Shown here: in pieces, positions 7,385-64,000 of the stretch
Layout of the letters: each line of letters starts with the position of its first letter
Numbering within the stretch: position 1 is the stretch's first letter
DNA from: Escherichia coli
Lineage (GTDB): Bacteria; Pseudomonadota; Gammaproteobacteria; Enterobacterales; Enterobacteriaceae
Strand: one strand, 5' to 3'
Assembly: GCF_024502345.1 (NCBI RefSeq)
Contig: NZ_JALDNN010000001.1
DNA: 64,000 nucleotides
Notes under the pieces: model-generated
Told to the model about the DNA's origin: nothing
The model's database searches: none
The model's input: the letters and a program-made list of their open reading frames with translations, nothing else
Translations under genes and position numbers: made by a program

Positions 7385-9937
7385 TCAGAACAATTCCTGT
7401 GCCTCGCCATTATCGATAATGGTCGTTCCCACCTCGTGCACCGCCTGTTGTGTCGGCTGCGTACCTTCGATGAAATACTCTTCGCGGCTGTTGCCACCAT
7501 TAGCTAACTGCCCGGTGCTGCGATCGATTTTCACCGTCACAATACCTGGCGGCGGCGTCAGCGGCTGCTCCGGCACACCTTCAAGAACGGCTTTCATATA
7601 AGCGTCCCATGCAGGCTGGGCGCTCTTGGCACCGCCTTCGTAACCTGATATCTGATCTTTAATCGCTCCGGAAGCCGTTGTATGACCGAGATTACGACGG
7701 TGATCATCAAAGCCAATCCAGACCGAGGTCACAACGCCCGGACCGTAACCCGAGAACCACGCATCTTTCGAACTGTTAGTGGTACCGGTTTTCCCGCCGA
7801 TATCGCGACGCTGCAAATCACGACCTGCACGCCAGCCGGTACCCTGCCAGCCTGGCTCACCAAAGATATTGGTGTTCAAAGCACTCTTAATCAGGAATGC
7901 CAGCGGAGTGTTGATGACGTGCGGTGCGTACTCCTGCGCGCCAGTCTTCGCCACTAACGCCTGATTTGCCTGCTCCAGCTGCGGCATTGGTACAGAAACA
8001 TTCTGCTGCTCGCGGGAGATAGCGACATCTTCAACATCGTTATTTTCCAGCACGTTCGATTTCTGCGTATCACCGTAAATCACTGGAATATCGCATTCCG
8101 GGCAGGCTACTTTCGGTTTCGCTTCGAAAATCACGCCGCCCTGATCGTTTTCAATTTTGCTGATAAACCACGGGTCCACCAGGAAGCCGCCGTTCGCCAT
8201 GACCGCGTAGCCGCGCGCCACCTGCATTGGGGTGAAGGACGCTGAACCCAGCGCCAGCGATTCGGTGTGGACAATGTTTTGCGCCGGGAAGCCGAAGCGT
8301 TGCAGATATTCTGCAGCGTAGTCGACGCCCATCGCTCGCATTGCGCGTACCATCACCACGTTTTTCGACTGACCCAGCCCCTGACGTAAGCGAATTGGAC
8401 CGGCATACTGCGGTGGTGAGTTTTTCGGCTGCCAGTCAGAACCGGCACCTGCGTCCCAGCGAGAAATTGGCACATCGTTCAACATACTTGCCAGCGTCAG
8501 ACCTTTATCCATCGCCGCGGTGTAGAGGAACGGTTTGATGTTGGAACCCACCTGACGCAGTGCCTGGGTGGCGCGGTTAAACTTGCTCTGATTGAAATCA
8601 AAGCCACCGACCAGCGCCATAACGGCACCATTTTGCGGATTGATCGACACCAGTGCCGAGTTCACTTCCGGCACTTGTGCCAGCCACCATGCATCGCCAA
8701 CCTGACGAACCCAGATTTGCTGGCCCGTTTGCAGAACATCGGTCACTTTACGCGGCGTCGGTCCCTGCTGAGTATCCGAACGGTAAGGACGCGCCCAGCG
8801 AACGCCTTCCATACTCAATGCGACGGTCGACCCGTCCGCCAGCATTGCCGTCGCTTCCTGAGGATTGGCGCTGGTGACTGCGGCAGGCAGCAGCGGACCA
8901 TAGGTCGGCAGCGCCTTCAGCGTATCGGTAATCTTGTTGTTATCCCACGCCGACTCGCCCACTTTCCACAGCACATTTGCCGGGCCGCGATAGCCGTGGC
9001 GCATGTCGTAGTCCAGCACGTTATTACGTACCGCCTGCTGTGCGGCCTGCTGCACTTTGCGGGTGATGGTGGTGTAAATGCGATAACCGTCTTCATAGGC
9101 ACTTTCGCCATAACGGTTATACATCTCCTGGCGCACCATTTCGCTCAGGTACGGCGCAGAAAAAGCAATCTCCGGCGCGTGATAGTTAGCGTTAATCGCC
9201 TCAGTGCGTGTCTGATCGAACTGTTGTTGGGTGATATACCCTTCATCCAGCATCCGCGACAGTACGACGTTACGCCGCGCGACGGCACGATCCATTGAGT
9301 AGAGCGGATTAAAGGTGGAAGGCGCTTTCGGCAGCCCGGCGATCACAGCCATTTCGTTCAGCGTCAGTTGGTCGACCGTTTTACCGAAATAGACTTGTGC
9401 CGCAGCACCGACACCATAGGCGCGGTAACCAAGGTAAATCTTGTTCAGATAAAGCTCGAGGATCTCGTCTTTCGTCAGCAACTGTTCAATGCGAATCGCG
9501 AGGAAGACTTCCTTAATCTTACGCATCAGCGTGCGTTCTGGACTGAGGAAGAAATTTCTCGCCAGCTGCTGGGTAATGGTACTCGCCCCTTGTGACGCGT
9601 GGCCGGAGAACAGCGCCACACTTGCCGCACGGAAGATCCCCACCGGGTCAACGCCGTGATGCTCGTAGAAGCGGCTGTCTTCCGTCGCGATAAAGGCTTT
9701 CACCATCTCTGGCGGGATTTGATCCAGCGTAACCGGAATACGACGTTTCTCACCGTATTGAGCAATCAGCTCGCCATCGGCGCTGTAAATCTGCATCGGA
9801 ATTTGCAGGCGAACATCTTTTAATGTCGCCACATCCGGCAGTTGTGGCTCGATGTAGCGGTATAGGCCATAAATCGAGCCTGCTCCCAGCAGAATGCAAC
9901 AGACTGCAAGGATCAAAAAATACTTTACGAACTTCAC
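7385..9937 (-). CDS. mrcA: Penicillin-binding protein 1A (bifunctional transglycosylase/transpeptidase)
   Basis: ORF 7385..9961; glycosyltransferase motifs (EDSRFYEHHGVD, RIEQLLTKDEILELYLN) and SxxK transpeptidase region; probable GTG start at 9937 giving MKFVKYFLILAV... (850 aa). Confidence 0.93.
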   Translation of the reverse strand: MKFVKYFLILAVCCILLGAGSIYGLYRYIEPQLPDVATLKDVRLQIPMQIYSADGELIAQYGEKRRIPVTLDQIPPEMVKAFIATEDSRFYEHHGVDPVGIFRAASVALFSGHASQGASTITQQLARNFFLSPERTLMRKIKEVFLAIRIEQLLTKDEILELYLNKIYLGYRAYGVGAAAQVYFGKTVDQLTLNEMAVIAGLPKAPSTFNPLYSMDRAVARRNVVLSRMLDEGYITQQQFDQTRTEAINANYHAPEIAFSAPYLSEMVRQEMYNRYGESAYEDGYRIYTTITRKVQQAAQQAVRNNVLDYDMRHGYRGPANVLWKVGESAWDNNKITDTLKALPTYGPLLPAAVTSANPQEATAMLADGSTVALSMEGVRWARPYRSDTQQGPTPRKVTDVLQTGQQIWVRQVGDAWWLAQVPEVNSALVSINPQNGAVMALVGGFDFNQSKFNRATQALRQVGSNIKPFLYTAAMDKGLTLASMLNDVPISRWDAGAGSDWQPKNSPPQYAGPIRLRQGLGQSKNVVMVRAMRAMGVDYAAEYLQRFGFPAQNIVHTESLALGSASFTPMQVARGYAVMANGGFLVDPWFISKIENDQGGVIFEAKPKVACPECDIPVIYGDTQKSNVLENNDVEDVAISREQQNVSVPMPQLEQANQALVAKTGAQEYAPHVINTPLAFLIKSALNTNIFGEPGWQGTGWRAGRDLQRRDIGGKTGTTNSSKDAWFSGYGPGVVTSVWIGFDDHRRNLGHTTASGAIKDQISGYEGGAKSAQPAWDAYMKAVLEGVPEQPLTPPPGIVTVKIDRSTGQLANGGNSREEYFIEGTQPTQQAVHEVGTTIIDNGEAQELF

Positions 9938-10056
9938 TGGAAATTTCCCATTTAGTTTCATTTGGGCAGTTTATAAACAAACGCGCGGTAGTATAAAGGC
10001 AAGCCAGACGCATTGATATACCCGTCAGAGTGACGGGTGATAAGGAGATCATCACA

Positions 10057-10836
10057 ATGGCATTTAAGATCTGGCAAATTGGTTTGCATTTACAACAGCA
10101 AGAAGCGGTAGCGGTTGCTATCGTGCGGGGCGCAAAAGAATGCTTTTTGCAACGCTGGTGGCGGTTGCCGCTGGCGCACGACATTATCAAAGATGGGCGG
10201 ATTGTTGATGCGCAGCGGCTGGCTAAAACGTTGTTACCGTGGAGTCGCGAACTGCCGCAGCGCCATCACATCATGTTGGCATTTCCCGCCAGTCGCACAT
10301 TACAGCGGTCATTTCCGCGCCCGTCGATGTCCCTCGGTGAGCGGGAGCAAACGGCCTGGCTGTCCGGGACGATGGCTCGCGAGCTGGATATGGATCCGGA
10401 CTCCCTGCGCTTCGATTACAGCGAAGACTCACTCAGTCCCGCCTATAACGTGACTGCCGCGCAAAGCAAAGAGCTGGCAACGCTGCTTACTCTGGCAGAA
10501 AGGTTGCGTGTTCATGTTAGTGCGATCACCCCGGATGCCAGTGCATTACAGCGATTCCTGCCTTTTTTACCTTCTCATCAGCAATGTCTGGCCTGGCGTG
10601 ATAACGAACAGTGGCTGTGGGCGACACGCTATCGCTGGGGGCGCAAACTGGCGGTGGGGATGACTAGCGCGAAGGAGCTGGCGGCAGCGTTATCCGTTGA
10701 TCCCGAAAGCGTCGCGATATGTGGCGAAGGCGGATTTGATCCCTGGGAGGCCGTTTCTGTTCGTCAGCCGCCGCTACCGCCGCCTGGTGGAGACTTTGCC
10801 ATCGCGCTGGGGCTGGCGCTTGGGAAGGCGTACTGA
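10057..10836 (+). CDS. hofM: Type IV pilus / DNA-uptake assembly protein HofM (PilM-like)
   Basis: ORF 10030..10836; ATG at 10057 preceded by AAGGAG; MAFKIWQIGLHLQQQEAV... Confidence 0.88.
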   Translation: MAFKIWQIGLHLQQQEAVAVAIVRGAKECFLQRWWRLPLAHDIIKDGRIVDAQRLAKTLLPWSRELPQRHHIMLAFPASRTLQRSFPRPSMSLGEREQTAWLSGTMARELDMDPDSLRFDYSEDSLSPAYNVTAAQSKELATLLTLAERLRVHVSAITPDASALQRFLPFLPSHQQCLAWRDNEQWLWATRYRWGRKLAVGMTSAKELAAALSVDPESVAICGEGGFDPWEAVSVRQPPLPPPGGDFAIALGLALGKAY

Positions 10837-11375
10837 TGAACCCGCCAATTAATTTTTTGCCCTGGCGACAGCAACGCCGGACCGCTTTTCTTCGTTTCTG
10901 GTTGCTGATGTTCGTTGCGCCTCTGCTGCTGGCCGTCGGGATAACGCTAATACTGCGTCTGACAAGCAGCGCCGAAGCGCGCATAGACGCCGTTTTGCTT
11001 CAGGCGGAACAACAACTCGCCCGCAGCTTACAGATAACGAAACCACGTTTGCTGGAGCGCCAACAAATTCGTGAGCAGCGTTTGCAAAGGCAGCGCCAGC
11101 GACAATTTACCCGCGACTGGCAATCTGCGCTGGAAGCACTGGCGGCGCTTTTACCCGAGCACGCCTGGCTGACAACGATAAGCTGGCAGCAGGGAACGCT
11201 GGAGATCAAGGGGCTGACAACAAGCATTACCGCGTTAAACGCACTAGAAATGTCACTCCGCCAGGATGCGTCTTTTCATCTCAATCAGCGGGGAGCCACG
11301 CAGCAGGATGCGCAGGGACGCTGGCAATTTGAGTATCAGTTAACAAGGAAGGTTAGCGATGAACATGTTCTTTGA
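10836..11375 (+). CDS. hofN: DNA-uptake protein HofN (PilN-like)
   Basis: 179-aa ORF with N-terminal TM segment; start overlaps hofM stop (TGATG). Confidence 0.88.
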   Translation: MNPPINFLPWRQQRRTAFLRFWLLMFVAPLLLAVGITLILRLTSSAEARIDAVLLQAEQQLARSLQITKPRLLERQQIREQRLQRQRQRQFTRDWQSALEALAALLPEHAWLTTISWQQGTLEIKGLTTSITALNALEMSLRQDASFHLNQRGATQQDAQGRWQFEYQLTRKVSDEHVL

Positions 11376-11799
11376 CTGGTGGTTCGCCACATCACCCCGC
11401 CTCCGCCAGCTTTGCTGGGCAGTCTGGTTGCTGATGTTAGTTACGCTCATTTTTCTATCATCGACACACCATGAAGAGCGCGACGCATTAATTCGACTAC
11501 GGGCAAGTCATCACCAGCAGTGGGCCGCACTGTATCGCCTGGTAGACACCACTCCCTTCAGCGAGGAAAAAACGCTGCCCTTTTCGCCACTGGATTTTCA
11601 GTTATCCGGCGCGCAACTGGTTTCCTGGCATCCATCCGCGCAGGGAGGCGAGTTGGCGTTGAAAACGCTGTGGGAAGCAGTGCCGTCGGCATTTACACGG
11701 CTGGCAGAGCGCAACGTCAGCGTGAGCCGTTTTTCGTTAAGCGTGGAAGGTGATGATCTTTTGTTCACGCTACAACTGGAGACGCCGCATGAGGGTTAA
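11359..11799 (+). CDS. hofO: DNA-uptake protein HofO (PilO-like)
   Basis: 146-aa ORF, 17-nt overlap with hofN. Confidence 0.85.
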   Translation: MNMFFDWWFATSPRLRQLCWAVWLLMLVTLIFLSSTHHEERDALIRLRASHHQQWAALYRLVDTTPFSEEKTLPFSPLDFQLSGAQLVSWHPSAQGGELALKTLWEAVPSAFTRLAERNVSVSRFSLSVEGDDLLFTLQLETPHEG

Positions 11800-12193
11800 A
11801 CGCTGGTTGTTGGCAGGTATTGCATTGTGCCTTTTAACCGGTATGCGTGACCCTTTTAAACCGCCGGAAGATCTATGCCGGATTAGCGAACTTAGCCAGT
11901 GGCGCTATCAGGGGATGGTAGGGCGAGGCGAACGCATCATCGGTGTAATAAAAGACGGGCAAAAGAAATGGCGACGGGTGCAGCAAAACGATGTGCTGGA
12001 AAACGGCTGGACAATTTTACAGCTGACGCCAGACGTACTAACGCTGGGTACCGGGACAAACTGCGAACCGCCACAATGGTTGTGGCAACGGCAAGGAGAT
12101 ACAAATGAAGCAATGGATAGCCGCACTACTGTTGATGCTGATACCCGGCGTACAGGCGGCAAAGCCGCAAAAAGTGACGCTGATGGTGGATGA
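11789..12193 (+). CDS. hofP: DNA-uptake protein HofP (PilP-like)
   Basis: ORF 11750..12193; start at ATG 11789 (MRVKRWLLAGIALCLLTGM...), overlapping the hofO stop; 3' end overlaps hofQ by 89 nt in another frame. Confidence 0.8.
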   Translation: MRVKRWLLAGIALCLLTGMRDPFKPPEDLCRISELSQWRYQGMVGRGERIIGVIKDGQKKWRRVQQNDVLENGWTILQLTPDVLTLGTGTNCEPPQWLWQRQGDTNEAMDSRTTVDADTRRTGGKAAKSDADGG

Positions 12194-13343
12194 CGTTCCG
12201 GTAGCTCAGGTGTTGCAGGCGCTGGCTGAACAGGAGAAGTTGAACCTGGTGGTGTCGCCAGACGTCAGCGGTACGGTGTCGTTACATCTAACAGATGTTC
12301 CCTGGAAGCAGGCACTACAAACTGTAGTGAAAAGCGCCGGACTGATAACGCGCCAGGAGGGCAACATTCTCTCGGTGCATTCCGTTGCCTGGCAGAATGA
12401 CAATATCGCCCGTCAGGAGGCGGAGCAGGCGCGGGCGCAGGCAAATCTGCCGCTGGAAAATCGCAATATTACTCTGCAATACGCCGACGCCGGAGAGCTG
12501 GCGAAAGCGGGGGAGAAGCTACTGAGTGCCAAAGGGAGTATGACCGTCGATAAACGCACCAATCGCCTTTTGCTGCGAGATAACAAAACGGCGTTAAGCG
12601 CGCTTGAACAATGGGTAGCGCAAATGGATCTGCCGGTCGGGCAGGTTGAGCTGTCGGCGCATATTGTCACCATTAATGAAAAAAGTTTGCGTGAGTTAGG
12701 CGTGAAATGGACGCTGGCCGATGCGCAACACGCTGGTGGCGTTGGGCAAGTCACCACGCTTGGTAGCGACCTCTCCGTAGCGACGGCGACAACGCATGTC
12801 GGTTTTAACATTGGGCGCATCAACGGACGCTTGCTGGATCTTGAGCTTTCCGCGCTCGAACAAAAACAGCAGCTGGATATTATCGCCAGTCCGCGTCTGC
12901 TGGCCTCACATCTTCAGCCTGCCAGCATTAAACAGGGGAGCGAAATTCCATATCAGGTTTCCAGCGGGGAAAGTGGCGCGACGTCGGTGGAATTTAAAGA
13001 GGCCGTCCTGGGGATGGAGGTCACGCCCACGGTGTTACAAAAAGGTCGCATCCGGCTGAAATTACACATCAGCCAGAACGTTCCGGGGCAGGTGCTACAG
13101 CAGGCCGATGGCGAAGTGCTGGCGATTGATAAGCAGGAGATCGAAACGCAGGTCGAGGTCAAAAGCGGAGAAACGTTGGCGCTGGGCGGCATTTTTACCC
13201 GTAAAAATAAATCGGGTCAGGATAGCGTACCGTTGCTTGGCGACATTCCCTGGTTCGGGCAATTATTTCGTCATGACGGAAAAGAAGATGAACGACGCGA
13301 GTTAGTGGTGTTTATCACGCCACGACTGGTTTCCAGTGAGTAA
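12105..13343 (+). CDS. hofQ: Outer-membrane secretin HofQ (PilQ/ComE-type)
   Basis: 412-aa ORF with signal peptide MKQWIAALLLMLIPGVQA and secretin C-domain (GETLALGGIF...VPLLGDIPWFGQLF). Confidence 0.92.
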   Translation: MKQWIAALLLMLIPGVQAAKPQKVTLMVDDVPVAQVLQALAEQEKLNLVVSPDVSGTVSLHLTDVPWKQALQTVVKSAGLITRQEGNILSVHSVAWQNDNIARQEAEQARAQANLPLENRNITLQYADAGELAKAGEKLLSAKGSMTVDKRTNRLLLRDNKTALSALEQWVAQMDLPVGQVELSAHIVTINEKSLRELGVKWTLADAQHAGGVGQVTTLGSDLSVATATTHVGFNIGRINGRLLDLELSALEQKQQLDIIASPRLLASHLQPASIKQGSEIPYQVSSGESGATSVEFKEAVLGMEVTPTVLQKGRIRLKLHISQNVPGQVLQQADGEVLAIDKQEIETQVEVKSGETLALGGIFTRKNKSGQDSVPLLGDIPWFGQLFRHDGKEDERRELVVFITPRLVSSE

Positions 13344-13743
13344 ACAGCCGTAAAAGCGGTAATGTTTTTATGCTGAACGTGTTTCATCTATTTGACGCGC
13401 GCAGGTATTTAGCATACAAGGAGTACCGATTTGAGAGTTGGTGCTCTTCGCTGCCTGCGTTCCATGATGATGATTTATCATTCAGGCGGCATTTTGCTGT
13501 CTTTTTTACGCTAATCTTACCCGGTGATTTATCGCCAGAGCGGTGGTAGCAAGGCAGCGCGCTTGCAGCGACCAGATATGCAGAGGGATGGGTGATTTAT
13601 TCAGTTGCCAAACCCGCTGGAGTATTGAGATAATTTTCAGTCTGACTCTCGCAATATCTTATGAGGTTTCAGTTCATGTCCTGCGGCGCTCTCTGAGCGA
13701 AGCGGGTTTATCATTAACGAATAGTCTTAGTAGTACCGAAAAA

Positions 13744-14265
13744 ATGGCAGAGAAACGCAATATCTTTCTGGTTGGGCCTATGGGTGCCGGAAAAAGCACT
13801 ATTGGGCGCCAGTTAGCTCAACAACTCAATATGGAATTTTACGATTCCGATCAAGAGATTGAGAAACGAACCGGAGCTGATGTGGGCTGGGTTTTCGATT
13901 TAGAAGGCGAAGAAGGCTTCCGCGATCGCGAAGAAAAGGTCATCAATGAGTTGACCGAGAAACAGGGTATTGTGCTGGCTACTGGCGGCGGCTCTGTGAA
14001 ATCCCGTGAAACGCGTAACCGTCTTTCCGCTCGTGGCGTTGTCGTTTATCTTGAAACGACCATCGAAAAGCAACTTGCACGCACGCAGCGTGATAAAAAA
14101 CGCCCGTTGCTGCACGTTGAAACACCGCCGCGTGAAGTTCTGGAAGCGTTGGCCAATGAACGCAATCCGCTGTATGAAGAGATTGCCGACGTGACCATTC
14201 GTACTGATGATCAAAGCGCTAAAGTGGTTGCAAACCAGATTATTCACATGCTGGAAAGCAACTAA
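13744..14265 (+). CDS. aroK: Shikimate kinase I
   Basis: ORF 13543..14265; ATG at 13744 gives [25 protein letters not shown]... with Walker A; 173 aa. Confidence 0.93.
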
Positions 14266-14321
14266 TTCTGGCTTTATATACACTCGTCTGCGGGTACAGT
14301 AATTAAGGTGGATGTCGCGTT

Positions 14322-15410
14322 ATGGAGAGGATTGTCGTTACTCTCGGGGAACGTAGTTACCCAATTACCATCGCATCTGGTTTGTTTAATGAACCAGCTT
14401 CATTCTTACCGCTGAAATCGGGCGAGCAGGTCATGTTGGTCACCAACGAAACCCTGGCTCCTCTGTATCTCGATAAGGTCCGCGGCGTACTTGAACAGGC
14501 GGGTGTTAACGTCGATAGCGTTACCCTCCCTGACGGCGAGCAGTATAAAAGCCTGGCTGTACTCGATACCGTCTTTACGGCGTTGTTACAAAAGCCGCAT
14601 GGTCGCGATACTACGCTGGTGGCGCTTGGCGGCGGCGTAGTGGGCGATCTGACCGGCTTCGCGGCGGCGAGTTATCAGCGCGGTGTTCGTTTCATTCAAG
14701 TCCCGACGACGTTACTGTCGCAGGTCGATTCCTCCGTTGGCGGCAAAACTGCGGTCAACCATCCCCTCGGTAAAAACATGATTGGCGCGTTCTACCAGCC
14801 TGCTTCAGTGGTGGTGGATCTCGACTGTCTGAAAACGCTTCCCCCGCGTGAGTTAGCGTCGGGGCTGGCAGAAGTCATCAAATACGGCATTATTCTTGAC
14901 GGTGCGTTTTTTAACTGGCTGGAAGAGAATCTGGATGCGTTGTTGCGTCTGGACGGTCCGGCAATGGCGTACTGTATTCGCCGTTGTTGTGAACTGAAGT
15001 CAGAAGTTGTCGCCGCCGACGAGCGCGAAACCGGGTTACGTGCTTTACTGAATCTGGGACACACCTTTGGTCATGCCATTGAAGCTGAAATGGGGTATGG
15101 CAATTGGTTACATGGTGAAGCGGTCGCTGCGGGTATGGTGATGGCGGCGCGGACGTCGGAACGTCTCGGGCAGTTTAGTTCTGCCGAAACGCAGCGTATT
15201 ATAACCCTGCTCACGCGGGCTGGGTTACCGGTCAATGGGCCGCGCGAAATGTCCGCGCAGGCGTATTTACCGCATATGCTGCGTGACAAGAAAGTCCTTG
15301 CGGGAGAGATGCGCTTAATTCTTCCGTTGGCAATTGGTAAGAGTGAAGTTCGCAGCGGCGTTTCGCACGAGCTTGTTCTTAACGCCATTGCCGATTGTCA
15401 ATCAGCGTAA
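14322..15410 (+). CDS. aroB: 3-dehydroquinate synthase
   Basis: 362-aa [25 protein letters not shown]...; NAD-binding GGGVVGD motif. Confidence 0.95.
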
Positions 15411-46044: not shown

Positions 46045-46677
46045 TTAACGAGTGCCGTAAACGACGATGGTTTTACCGTGTGCGGAGATCAGGTTCTGAT
46101 CTTCAAGCATCTTCAGAATGCGTCCCACGGTTTCACGAGAACAGCCGACAATCTGACCGATTTCCTGACGGGTAATTTTGATTTGCATACCGTCCGGGTG
46201 AGTCATAGCGTCTGGTTGTTTTGCCAGATTCAGCAGAGTCTGTGCAATGCGGCCCGTCACGTCGAGGAACGCCAGGTTGCCCACTTTCTCTGAAGTGACT
46301 TGCAGACGACGCGCCATCTGTGCAGACAGACGCATCAGAATGTCCGGGTTTACCTGAATCAATTGGCGAAATTTTTTGTACGAAATTTCAGCCACTTCAC
46401 AGGCGGTTTTCGCACGTACCCATGCGCTACGTTCCTGGCCCTCTTCAAACAGGCCCAGTTCGCCAATAAAATCACCCTGATTCAGATAGGAGAGGATCAT
46501 TTCTTTACCCTCTTCGTCTTTGATCAGCACTGCCACAGAGCCTTTAACGATGTAGTACAGCGTTTCCGCTTTTTCACCCTGGTGAATAAGCGTGCTCTTG
46601 GATGGGTACTTATGAATGTGGCAATGAGACAAGAACCATTCGAGAGTCGGGTCTGTTTGCGGTTTGCCAAGCACCAT
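46045..46677 (-). CDS. crp: cAMP receptor protein (catabolite activator protein)
   Basis: 210-aa [80 protein letters not shown]...[17 protein letters not shown]. Confidence 0.98.
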
Positions 46678-63101: not shown

Positions 63102-63578
63102 ATGAAAGGTGATGTTAAAATCATAAATTATCTCAATAAACTATTGGGAAATGAGCTTGTCGCAATCAATCAGTATTTTCTCCATGCCCGGATGTTTAAA
63201 AACTGGGGGCTGATGCGTCTCAATGACGTTGAATACCATGAATCCATCGATGAGATGAAACACGCTGATAAGTATATCGAGCGTATTTTGTTTTTAGAAG
63301 GAGTCCCCAACTTACAGGATTTAGGCAAACTGGGGATTGGTGAAGATGTCGAAGAGATGCTGCAATCCGACCTGCGATTAGAGCTGGAAGGCGCGAAGGA
63401 TCTGCGTGAGGCTATCGCATATGCCGACAGCGTTCATGACTATGTTAGCCGCGATATGATGATCGAGATCCTTGCTGATGAAGAAGGTCATATCGACTGG
63501 CTCGAAACTGAACTGGATCTCATCGGTAAAATCGGCCTACAAAATTACCTGCAATCACAAATTAAAGTTAAAGATTAA
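63102..63578 (+). CDS. bfr: Bacterioferritin
   Basis: 158-aa [40 protein letters not shown]... Confidence 0.97.
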
Positions 63579-64000
63579 CGGCCTATCAGCAAACTATCCC
63601 AGCCTATAACGAAACCCGCAGCCGCCAGAAATGGCCCAAAGGGCAGCGGGTTTTTTAATGATTCTTTTCCTCTCATGAGCAGACCAATAACTACGGCTCC
63701 GCAAGCGAATGAGGCAGCAAGGAAAACCAGTCGTGGTAAGAAGGCCCATGAATGCCAGGCGCCAAGGGCGGCGAGAAACTTCACATCACCATAGCCTAAT
63801 CCTTCTTTATGGCGCAGTATACGATACCCCCAGTAAATGACAGCGAATGTGCCGTAACCAACAATTGCCCCCCATAACGCATCGGCTAAACCATCAGGAT
63901 GACAAACTTGATAGAACAAAAGACCTGACCAGAGTAACGGGCACGTAAATCTGTCAGGTAACAAGCCATGCTTTGCATCCCAGAAAAAAAGTAGGGCTGA
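63575..64000 (-). CDS. hofD: Prepilin-peptidase-like leader peptidase HofD/HopD, 3' part; start lies beyond the window end
   Basis: Reverse-strand frame open to the window edge; hydrophobic ...[30 protein letters not shown]...[17 protein letters not shown]..., typical of A24 prepilin peptidases. Confidence 0.8.

Follow-up and report, generated by a model that had tools for sequence, protein, structure and literature searches.

The 64,000-nt stretch of DNA analyzed here (the window; contig NZ_JALDNN010000001.1 of assembly GCF_024502345.1) is Escherichia coli chromosome and carries the operon hofMNOPQ at positions 10057 to 13343. The best overall explanation, to which we give a probability of about 0.85, is that these five genes encode the envelope-spanning core of a type IVa pilus/DNA-uptake machine and that the long overlap between hofP and hofQ is a by-product. 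The present analysis itself showed how the genes are structured and conserved, which folds their products adopt, that they are under purifying selection, and what sets the length of the overlap; regulation, DNA uptake, and pilus assembly were taken from the literature. The operon is already known and well studied, and the finding is an ordinary one.

Gene organization of the hofMNOPQ operon

The open reading frame listing and direct reading of the window gave five genes:

10057 to 10836, plus strand: hofM, 259 aa
10836 to 11375, plus strand: hofN, 179 aa
11359 to 11799, plus strand: hofO, 146 aa
11789 to 12193, plus strand: hofP, 134 aa
12105 to 13343, plus strand: hofQ, 412 aa

Successive genes overlap by 1 nt (hofM/hofN), 17 nt (hofN/hofO), 11 nt (hofO/hofP), and 89 nt (hofP/hofQ), and the hofQ reading frame is +1 relative to that of hofP. 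The original prediction, made from the sequence alone, had described five overlapping hof genes over 10057 to 13343, with hofQ in another frame than hofP and 89 nt shared by the two; both descriptions were exact, and the RefSeq annotation of the closest genome (GF3-3, 99.4% identical) contains precisely the same five coding sequences. The segment from 10057 to 13343 is present at full length in 5425 of 5426 complete E. coli genomes, with a best match of 99.4% identity.

Profile and fold assignment of the Hof proteins

HofQ gave the clearest assignment. The NCBIfam model NF007851 aligned over residues 1 to 412 of 412 with 856 bits (cut-off 598), and the PilQ model TIGR02515 scored 448.5 bits against a cut-off of 284. 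The GspD model reached only 193 bits of the required 351, and the type III secretin cut-off was not reached either. STN, Secretin_N, and Secretin domains were detected with Pfam. The best solved relative was the PilQ-family secretin 6w6m (9e-75), which we take to be from Vibrio cholerae; a solved chain named HofQ, 2y3m, also matched. HofQ aligned to residues 158-569 of 6w6m and 322-737 of 4av2. By these profiles, HofQ is an outer-membrane PilQ-family secretin, predicted to consist of a signal peptide, an STN/N0 domain, an N1 domain, and the secretin domain.

HofP matched its own Pfam family with 266.7 bits. In the AlphaFold2 model, the predicted local distance difference test score (pLDDT) exceeded 90 for residues ~31-100 and fell below 50 for exactly residues 106-134. 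The top 11 Foldseek matches were all PilP (3jc8_P, 2ivw, 2lc4, 2y4x/y) or the HR domains of GspC/LspC; the HofP core superimposed on the GspC HR domain 3oss_C with a TM score of 0.74 and a root-mean-square deviation of 2.8, and the HofP profile matched PilP 3jc8_P at 0.0024. Conserved columns of the family alignment end at G103. The model thus describes HofP as a periplasmic β-sandwich of the PilP/GspC type, with a predicted folded core at about residues 30-103 and a disordered tail, residues 106-134, encoded inside hofQ.

For HofM, the AlphaFold2 model (pLDDT 90) retrieved Pseudomonas aeruginosa PilM 5eoy (1.4e-13), PilM 2ych (2e-11), and two cyto-GspL/EpsL structures (4e-12 and 1e-11) with Foldseek, and a 29-sequence family profile matched PilM 3jc8_M at 4.7e-7. 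Single-sequence Pfam and TIGR matches stayed below cut-off (TIGR01175, 15.9 bits vs 133). As modeled, HofM is a cytoplasmic PilM-like actin-fold protein in a short form of 259 aa. HofN matched the Pfam PilN family PF05137 with 36.5 bits (cut-off 22.8). Its translation begins with MNPPINFLPWR, followed by one hydrophobic helix, and its sequence classifies it as a PilN-type bitopic inner-membrane protein; in line with the PilM:PilN structures 2ych and 5eou, we take the INFLPWR motif to be the PilM-binding one. HofO matched the Pfam HofO family PF25319 (89.6 bits), described there as EpsM-like, and no model other than that of its own family. It is probably the bitopic membrane protein at the PilO position, with a GspM-like C-terminal domain. 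Because a 33-sequence HofO profile matched no solved structure in the PDB, PilO included, its equivalence to PilO is drawn from gene position and topology. The core identification made earlier, PilM/N/O/P-like assembly proteins plus a secretin, was correct, profiles and predicted folds placing HofM, HofN, HofP, and HofQ and leaving HofO untied to PilO.

Comparison with known systems

The closest parallel is PilMNOPQ of P. aeruginosa, Neisseria, and Myxococcus. The gene order M-N-O-P-Q is the same, and the likeness extends to the PilM fold of HofM, the PilN domain of HofN, the PilP β-sandwich of HofP, and the PilQ-family secretin HofQ. The neighborhood mrcA(ponA)-pilM...Q-aroK-aroB is found both here and in distant relatives, and presumably in Pseudomonas as well.

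Several differences weigh against this parallel. HofM lacks ~95 aa relative to PilM, which brings its size equally near that of cyto-GspL. A Pfam scan detected no N-terminal peptidoglycan-binding AMIN domain in HofQ, which has 412 aa compared with 714-745 aa in PilQ. The absence of a detectable sequence match between HofO and solved PilO belongs here as well, as does the hofP reading frame, which runs 38-140 nt into hofQ. HofP also lacks a lipobox: no cysteine is conserved in the signal-peptide region among 32 HofP sequences, and C14 of the E. coli protein is unconserved. Two other cysteines, C30 and C92, are invariant in the same 32 sequences. Unlike the lipoprotein PilP, HofP may reside in the periplasm in soluble form or anchored by its signal sequence, with a disulfide holding it together.

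Type II secretion systems share part of this architecture: HofM fits cyto-GspL/EpsL almost as well as PilM, the Pfam domain of HofO is described as EpsM-like, and the HofP core superimposes on the GspC HR domain. HofQ, however, lies far below the GspD cut-off and above that of PilQ, and HofM and HofN exist as two proteins, the arrangement of pilus systems, and are not joined into one as in GspL.

A third comparison is with comABCDE of Haemophilus influenzae and PilMNOPQ of V. cholerae. The hof genes are published orthologs of comA-E, are controlled by Sxy and CRP at CRP-S sites, and are needed for DNA uptake (PMC1635313, PMC3330819). E. coli differs in having two weak CRP-S sites instead of one (PMC1635313), no known natural inducing condition for sxy, and very low transformation frequencies (PMC1635313, PMC3330819).

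Extent and age of the hofP/hofQ overlap

The overlap occupies the following segment:

12105 to 12193, plus strand: hofP/hofQ overlap, comprising hofQ codons 1-29 plus two bases of codon 30 (the signal peptide and the start of the mature protein) and encoding HofP residues 106-134

We surveyed it by a HofQ-alignment scan of one genome per species, which yielded 80 loci from Enterobacteriaceae and Erwiniaceae and, with the window, 81 sequences. The overlap was present in 81 of 81, always in the same relative frame, and measured 38-140 nt with a mode of 89 nt (33/81). Among distant relatives with the same mrcA...aroB synteny, the two genes overlapped by 4 or 62 nt or were separated by 38 or 65 nt. 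On this comparison of sequences, the long overlap is a derived, lineage-wide, length-variable feature.

When annotated bacterial genes on one strand overlap at great length, a prediction error is often the cause, and in-frame ATGs exist at hofQ codons 11 and 27. An annotation artifact would have hofQ starting at M11 (12135) or M27 (12183), or hofP ending earlier. We regard this as very improbable. The ATG at 12105 follows an AAGGAG at 12093..12098, 6 nt upstream, and opens a canonical signal peptide, MKQWIAALLLMLIPGVQA. The start is ATG in 78 of the 80 loci and GTG in two, with an SD-like (Shine-Dalgarno-like) AAGGA/GGAG inside the last conserved hofP codons, and every HofQ surveyed opens with a signal peptide. 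Initiation at M27 would leave the secretin without the signal peptide required for its export, the alignment to the NCBIfam HofQ model begins at residue 1, and the hofP frame has no stop before 12191. Because the start and its SD motif are conserved and the signal peptide is always there, the overlap is not an artifact of a missed downstream start, a possibility that the original prediction had named as refuting it.

Cause of the overlap length

For a stop codon to arise in the hofP frame, a hofQ codon with T in its third position must come right before AAN, AGN, or GAN, that is, before a K, N, S, R, D, or E codon. With the E. coli HofQ sequence, such a stop is impossible before nt 59. When HofQ was randomly recoded with synonymous codons, the hofP frame ended at nt 59 (16%), 86 (22%), or 89 (39%), with a median of 89. 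The HofP tail has no conserved column and is 12-47 aa long across the sequences.

These observations are best read as showing an overlap that is the by-product of a hofQ start placed inside the end of hofP. In this account, the hofQ ribosome-binding site lies in the last conserved hofP codons (QG-D/E), and the hydrophobic HofQ signal peptide that follows offers no stop-permitting pair of NNT and a K/N/S/R/D/E codon. Since the signal-peptide coding sequence contains no stop site, HofP gains a disordered, unconserved tail. The original prediction had called the overlap unusually long. It is long but not mysterious: it is shared by all the sequences surveyed, its length follows the composition of the HofQ signal peptide, and the tail is unconserved and predicted to be disordered.

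The alternative is a functional overlap, in which ribosomes translating hofP across the hofQ start set the HofP:HofQ ratio by positive or negative coupling, or the HofP tail acts at the secretin, and selection keeps the overlap. In its favor is the absence of any exception in 81 sequences from two families, in one frame and never below 38 nt; that no lineage in Enterobacteriaceae or Erwiniaceae has lost the overlap fits selection as well as inertia, and so counts against a by-product. Synonymous divergence points the same way within Escherichia, at 9/95 for hofQ codons 2-30 and 377/1459 for the rest of the gene, which could hint at a constraint from the tail, and dS estimated by the method of Nei and Gojobori (NG86) was 2-4x lower in hofQ codons 1-30 than elsewhere in the gene.

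In 73 more distant loci, the gap in synonymous divergence had nearly gone (0.46 vs 0.51), and aroK, aroB, and hofM show the same drop at their 5' ends. Because these controls match hofQ, its low 5' synonymous rate is no evidence of tail constraint, and extra constraint imposed by the HofP tail was rejected. The signature of dual coding was likewise not found: the hofQ frame is conserved as a signal peptide everywhere, and the tail in the hofP frame is unconserved with pLDDT below 50. The overlap length is what random recoding of HofQ predicts, and the RNA at the hofP/hofQ junction showed no unusual structure (z = -0.5), with the SD and ATG unpaired. The operon is also retained in relatives whose two genes overlap by 4 nt or are separated by a gap. 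We therefore consider a functional overlap unlikely. Slightly less likely still is its historical form, in which the overlap was kept throughout Enterobacteriaceae and Erwiniaceae as a regulatory device, ribosomes running 38-140 nt past the hofQ start gating initiation and fixing the HofP:secretin ratio, or the disordered tail acting on the channel.

Selection and intactness of the operon

Pairwise ratios of nonsynonymous to synonymous substitution rates (dN/dS) were calculated against four other Escherichia lineages, Salmonella, two Citrobacter, Intestinirhabdus, and Enterobacter. The lowest values were those of hofQ (0.03-0.11), and hofM to hofP ranged from 0.08 to 0.45. Identity to E. fergusonii was 64% for HofP and 86% for HofQ. 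The small Hof proteins change quickly yet remain constrained; the five genes are all intact and under purifying selection, and none is a pseudogene, a possibility that the original prediction had named as one that would refute it.

Lesions were seen in single lineages. In the E. albertii type strain, hofP is interrupted by an in-frame stop (locus L003, 3622..4089), and C. koseri NCTC10786 has a frameshift near the hofQ start (locus L037, ~3890). Both are probably sporadic inactivations, or assembly errors, in otherwise conserved operons. They could also be cited, together with the fast evolution of HofN, HofO, and HofP and with basal transcription that is poor or undetectable in laboratory culture (PMC1635313), for an operon that is a decaying relic without present function, on its way to pseudogenes. 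We hold this to be highly unlikely. The dN/dS of every gene lies within 0.03-0.45 out to other genera, the five genes are intact in a stretch that nearly every complete E. coli genome retains, and hofQ mutants have published phenotypes (PMC3330819, PMC2649431). Checks directed at this alternative found neither dN/dS near 1 nor frequent frameshifts.

Within E. coli, the hof operon is 97-98.8% identical to most genomes and reaches at least 99% in only 11, whereas the neighboring aroK-aroB segment (13744..15410) reaches at least 99% in 5416; mrcA is intermediate. Synonymous divergence from other Escherichia lineages is 1.2-7x higher in hofQ than in aroB. Exceptional divergence of this strain's hof operon was considered and rejected, as the 97-98.8% spread is ordinary between-phylogroup variation and mrcA behaves similarly.

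Hof genes of enterobacterial type (HofQ 71% and HofP 70-79% identical to E. coli) also turned up in database records labeled Chryseobacterium sp. 18061, Acinetobacter baumannii, and Providencia rettgeri. These records are likely to reflect contamination or mislabeling.

Upstream region and regulation

Three features were located upstream of hofM:

9781 to 9906, plus strand: CRP-binding fragment upstream of hofM (yrfD), within the 5' coding region of the divergent mrcA
9963 to 10020, no strand assigned: mrcA-hofM intergenic core, nearly invariant, with TTTATA (9970-9975), a 16-nt spacer, and TATAAA (9992-9997)
10020 to 10038, plus strand: hairpin ACCCGTCA-gag-TGACGGGT, a perfect 8-bp stem 3 nt upstream of the hofM SD

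The first was placed by the electrophoretic mobility shift assay primers yrfDF and yrfDR of Cameron & Redfield 2006 (PMC1635313), which match the window exactly at 9781-9800 and 9885-9906. In that study, two CRP-S sites were reported at the ends of the fragment, CRP bound it, and Sxy induced yrfD/hofM 16-fold in a CRP-dependent manner (PMC1635313). Our search for TGCGA-N6-TCGCA with up to two mismatches found no site upstream of hofM, a result that is uninformative for weak E. coli CRP-S sites and consistent with the weak sites published; over the whole window there were 34 matches vs 48 expected by chance.

The intergenic core was examined in an alignment of 12 genera and 28 further upstream regions. 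Its TTTATA-N16-TATAAA reads as a -35/-10 pair on both strands and is kept as far as Erwinia and Pantoea, where HofM is only 27-29% identical. This conservation suggests that 9963..10020 is a shared divergent promoter region for mrcA and hofM.

Further downstream, the hofM SD AAGGAG lies at 10042-10047, and the leader 10003-10075 folds with z = -2.4. The cross-genus consensus of the hairpin retains only 4 pairs with weak covariation, and compensatory changes were seen in some genera (C. youngae, C. braakii, UBA5654). An Rfam scan of 9500..13800 gave a single, sub-threshold match at 9783..9808 to asponA, an RNA antisense to ponA (mrcA) described in P. aeruginosa; with 26 nt and 14.7 bits against a gathering score of 113 (E 0.34), it was judged a chance match.

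The same window contains, at 46045..46677 on the minus strand and ~33 kb from hofQ, the gene crp, whose product matches the K-12 CRP sequence at 100% and is the activator that acts with Sxy on hofMNOPQ. The small RNA fimR2 has been reported to raise hofQ mRNA in stationary phase.

The prepilin peptidase gene at the window end

One further gene of interest lies at the far end of the window:

63575 to 64000, minus strand: 3' part of the prepilin peptidase gene hopD, the last 141 codons plus stop (426 nt) of 155 codons, with the start beyond the window; convergent with bfr

It is separated from the hofQ stop by 50,232 nt. The encoded fragment matched the Pfam Peptidase_A24 family PF01478 with 78.9 bits and was 41% identical over 138 aa to K-12 GspO/HofD (b3335), with the WD...LLPD and GYGD motifs aligned; we take the aspartates of these motifs to be catalytic. 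In a 99.8%-identical strain, the full gene encodes 155 aa and lies between bfr and rpsJ, without the gsp operon and without chiA; K-12 has gspC-M-gspO and chiA in this region. Its likeness to the K-12 enzymes GspO (HofD/HopD, b3335) and PppA lies in the Peptidase_A24 domain and both aspartate motifs, and it shares with gspO the chromosomal slot, convergent with bfr. It differs from GspO in length (155 vs 225 aa) and in having no gsp operon next to it.

The name leader peptidase HopD is given to proteins of this type in Salmonella, Citrobacter, Enterobacter, and others, and the 155-aa allele occurs in 2255 of 5426 complete E. coli genomes (~42%), O157:H7 included. The window peptidase is this widespread orphan HopD allele. 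The original prediction had identified it as hofD, about 50 kb from the operon: the peptidase gene, its position, and the distance were real, and orthology to K-12 hofD/gspO was rejected on the 41% identity and the missing gsp linkage in the 99.8%-identical strain.

In the segment 62650..64000, the window is of a strain type that lacks chiA between bfd and tufA. Judged from 99.8%-identical genomes, the entire gspAB/gspC-M cluster for type II secretion is also missing from this type, in the interval from the peptidase gene to rpsJ.

K-12 is reported to have two prepilin peptidases, of which PppA processes pre-PpdD. The peptidase used in pilus reconstitution was gspO (bioRxiv 856302). Because HopD occurs in several genera that also have hof, it is plausible that HopD is cognate to the hof system and a candidate peptidase for the Ppd pilins.

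Proposed machine and biological meaning

We considered how the five proteins could work together. HofM would be cytoplasmic and actin-like and bind the N-terminus of HofN; HofN and HofO would be bitopic inner-membrane proteins; and HofP, a periplasmic β-sandwich, would link them to the secretin, with HofQ as the outer-membrane channel. The rest of the machine is encoded elsewhere, by ppdD-hofBC, the minor pilin genes ppdAB-ygdB-ppdC, and a prepilin peptidase, in this strain perhaps HopD. The complete machine would build the PpdD pilus and allow DNA to pass through the outer membrane. According to published work, transcription is normally very low and is activated by Sxy (TfoX) acting with CRP-cAMP at non-canonical CRP-S sites that precede hofM. 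As each hof gene after the first starts inside the preceding one, the tight packing may suit coupled, stoichiometric translation.

Published work agrees with such a machine: Sxy-dependent DNA uptake needs hofQ (PMC3330819), PpdD pili have been assembled with the hof genes plus gspO (bioRxiv 856302), and a hofQ mutant of uropathogenic E. coli was defective in kidney colonization (PMC2649431). The earlier description of these genes as cryptic, in an organism not naturally transformable under laboratory conditions, is thus partly out of date, because the operon responds to Sxy and DNA uptake that depends on hofQ has been demonstrated (PMC1635313, PMC3330819).

The present analysis adds a simple account of the length and age of the hofP/hofQ overlap and the assignment of this strain's peptidase gene to an orphan HopD allele, distinct from K-12 gspO. 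These additions are modest and leave the current picture unchanged: the operon matters for natural competence, the use of DNA as a nutrient, and pilus-mediated colonization in E. coli, roles that earlier publications describe.

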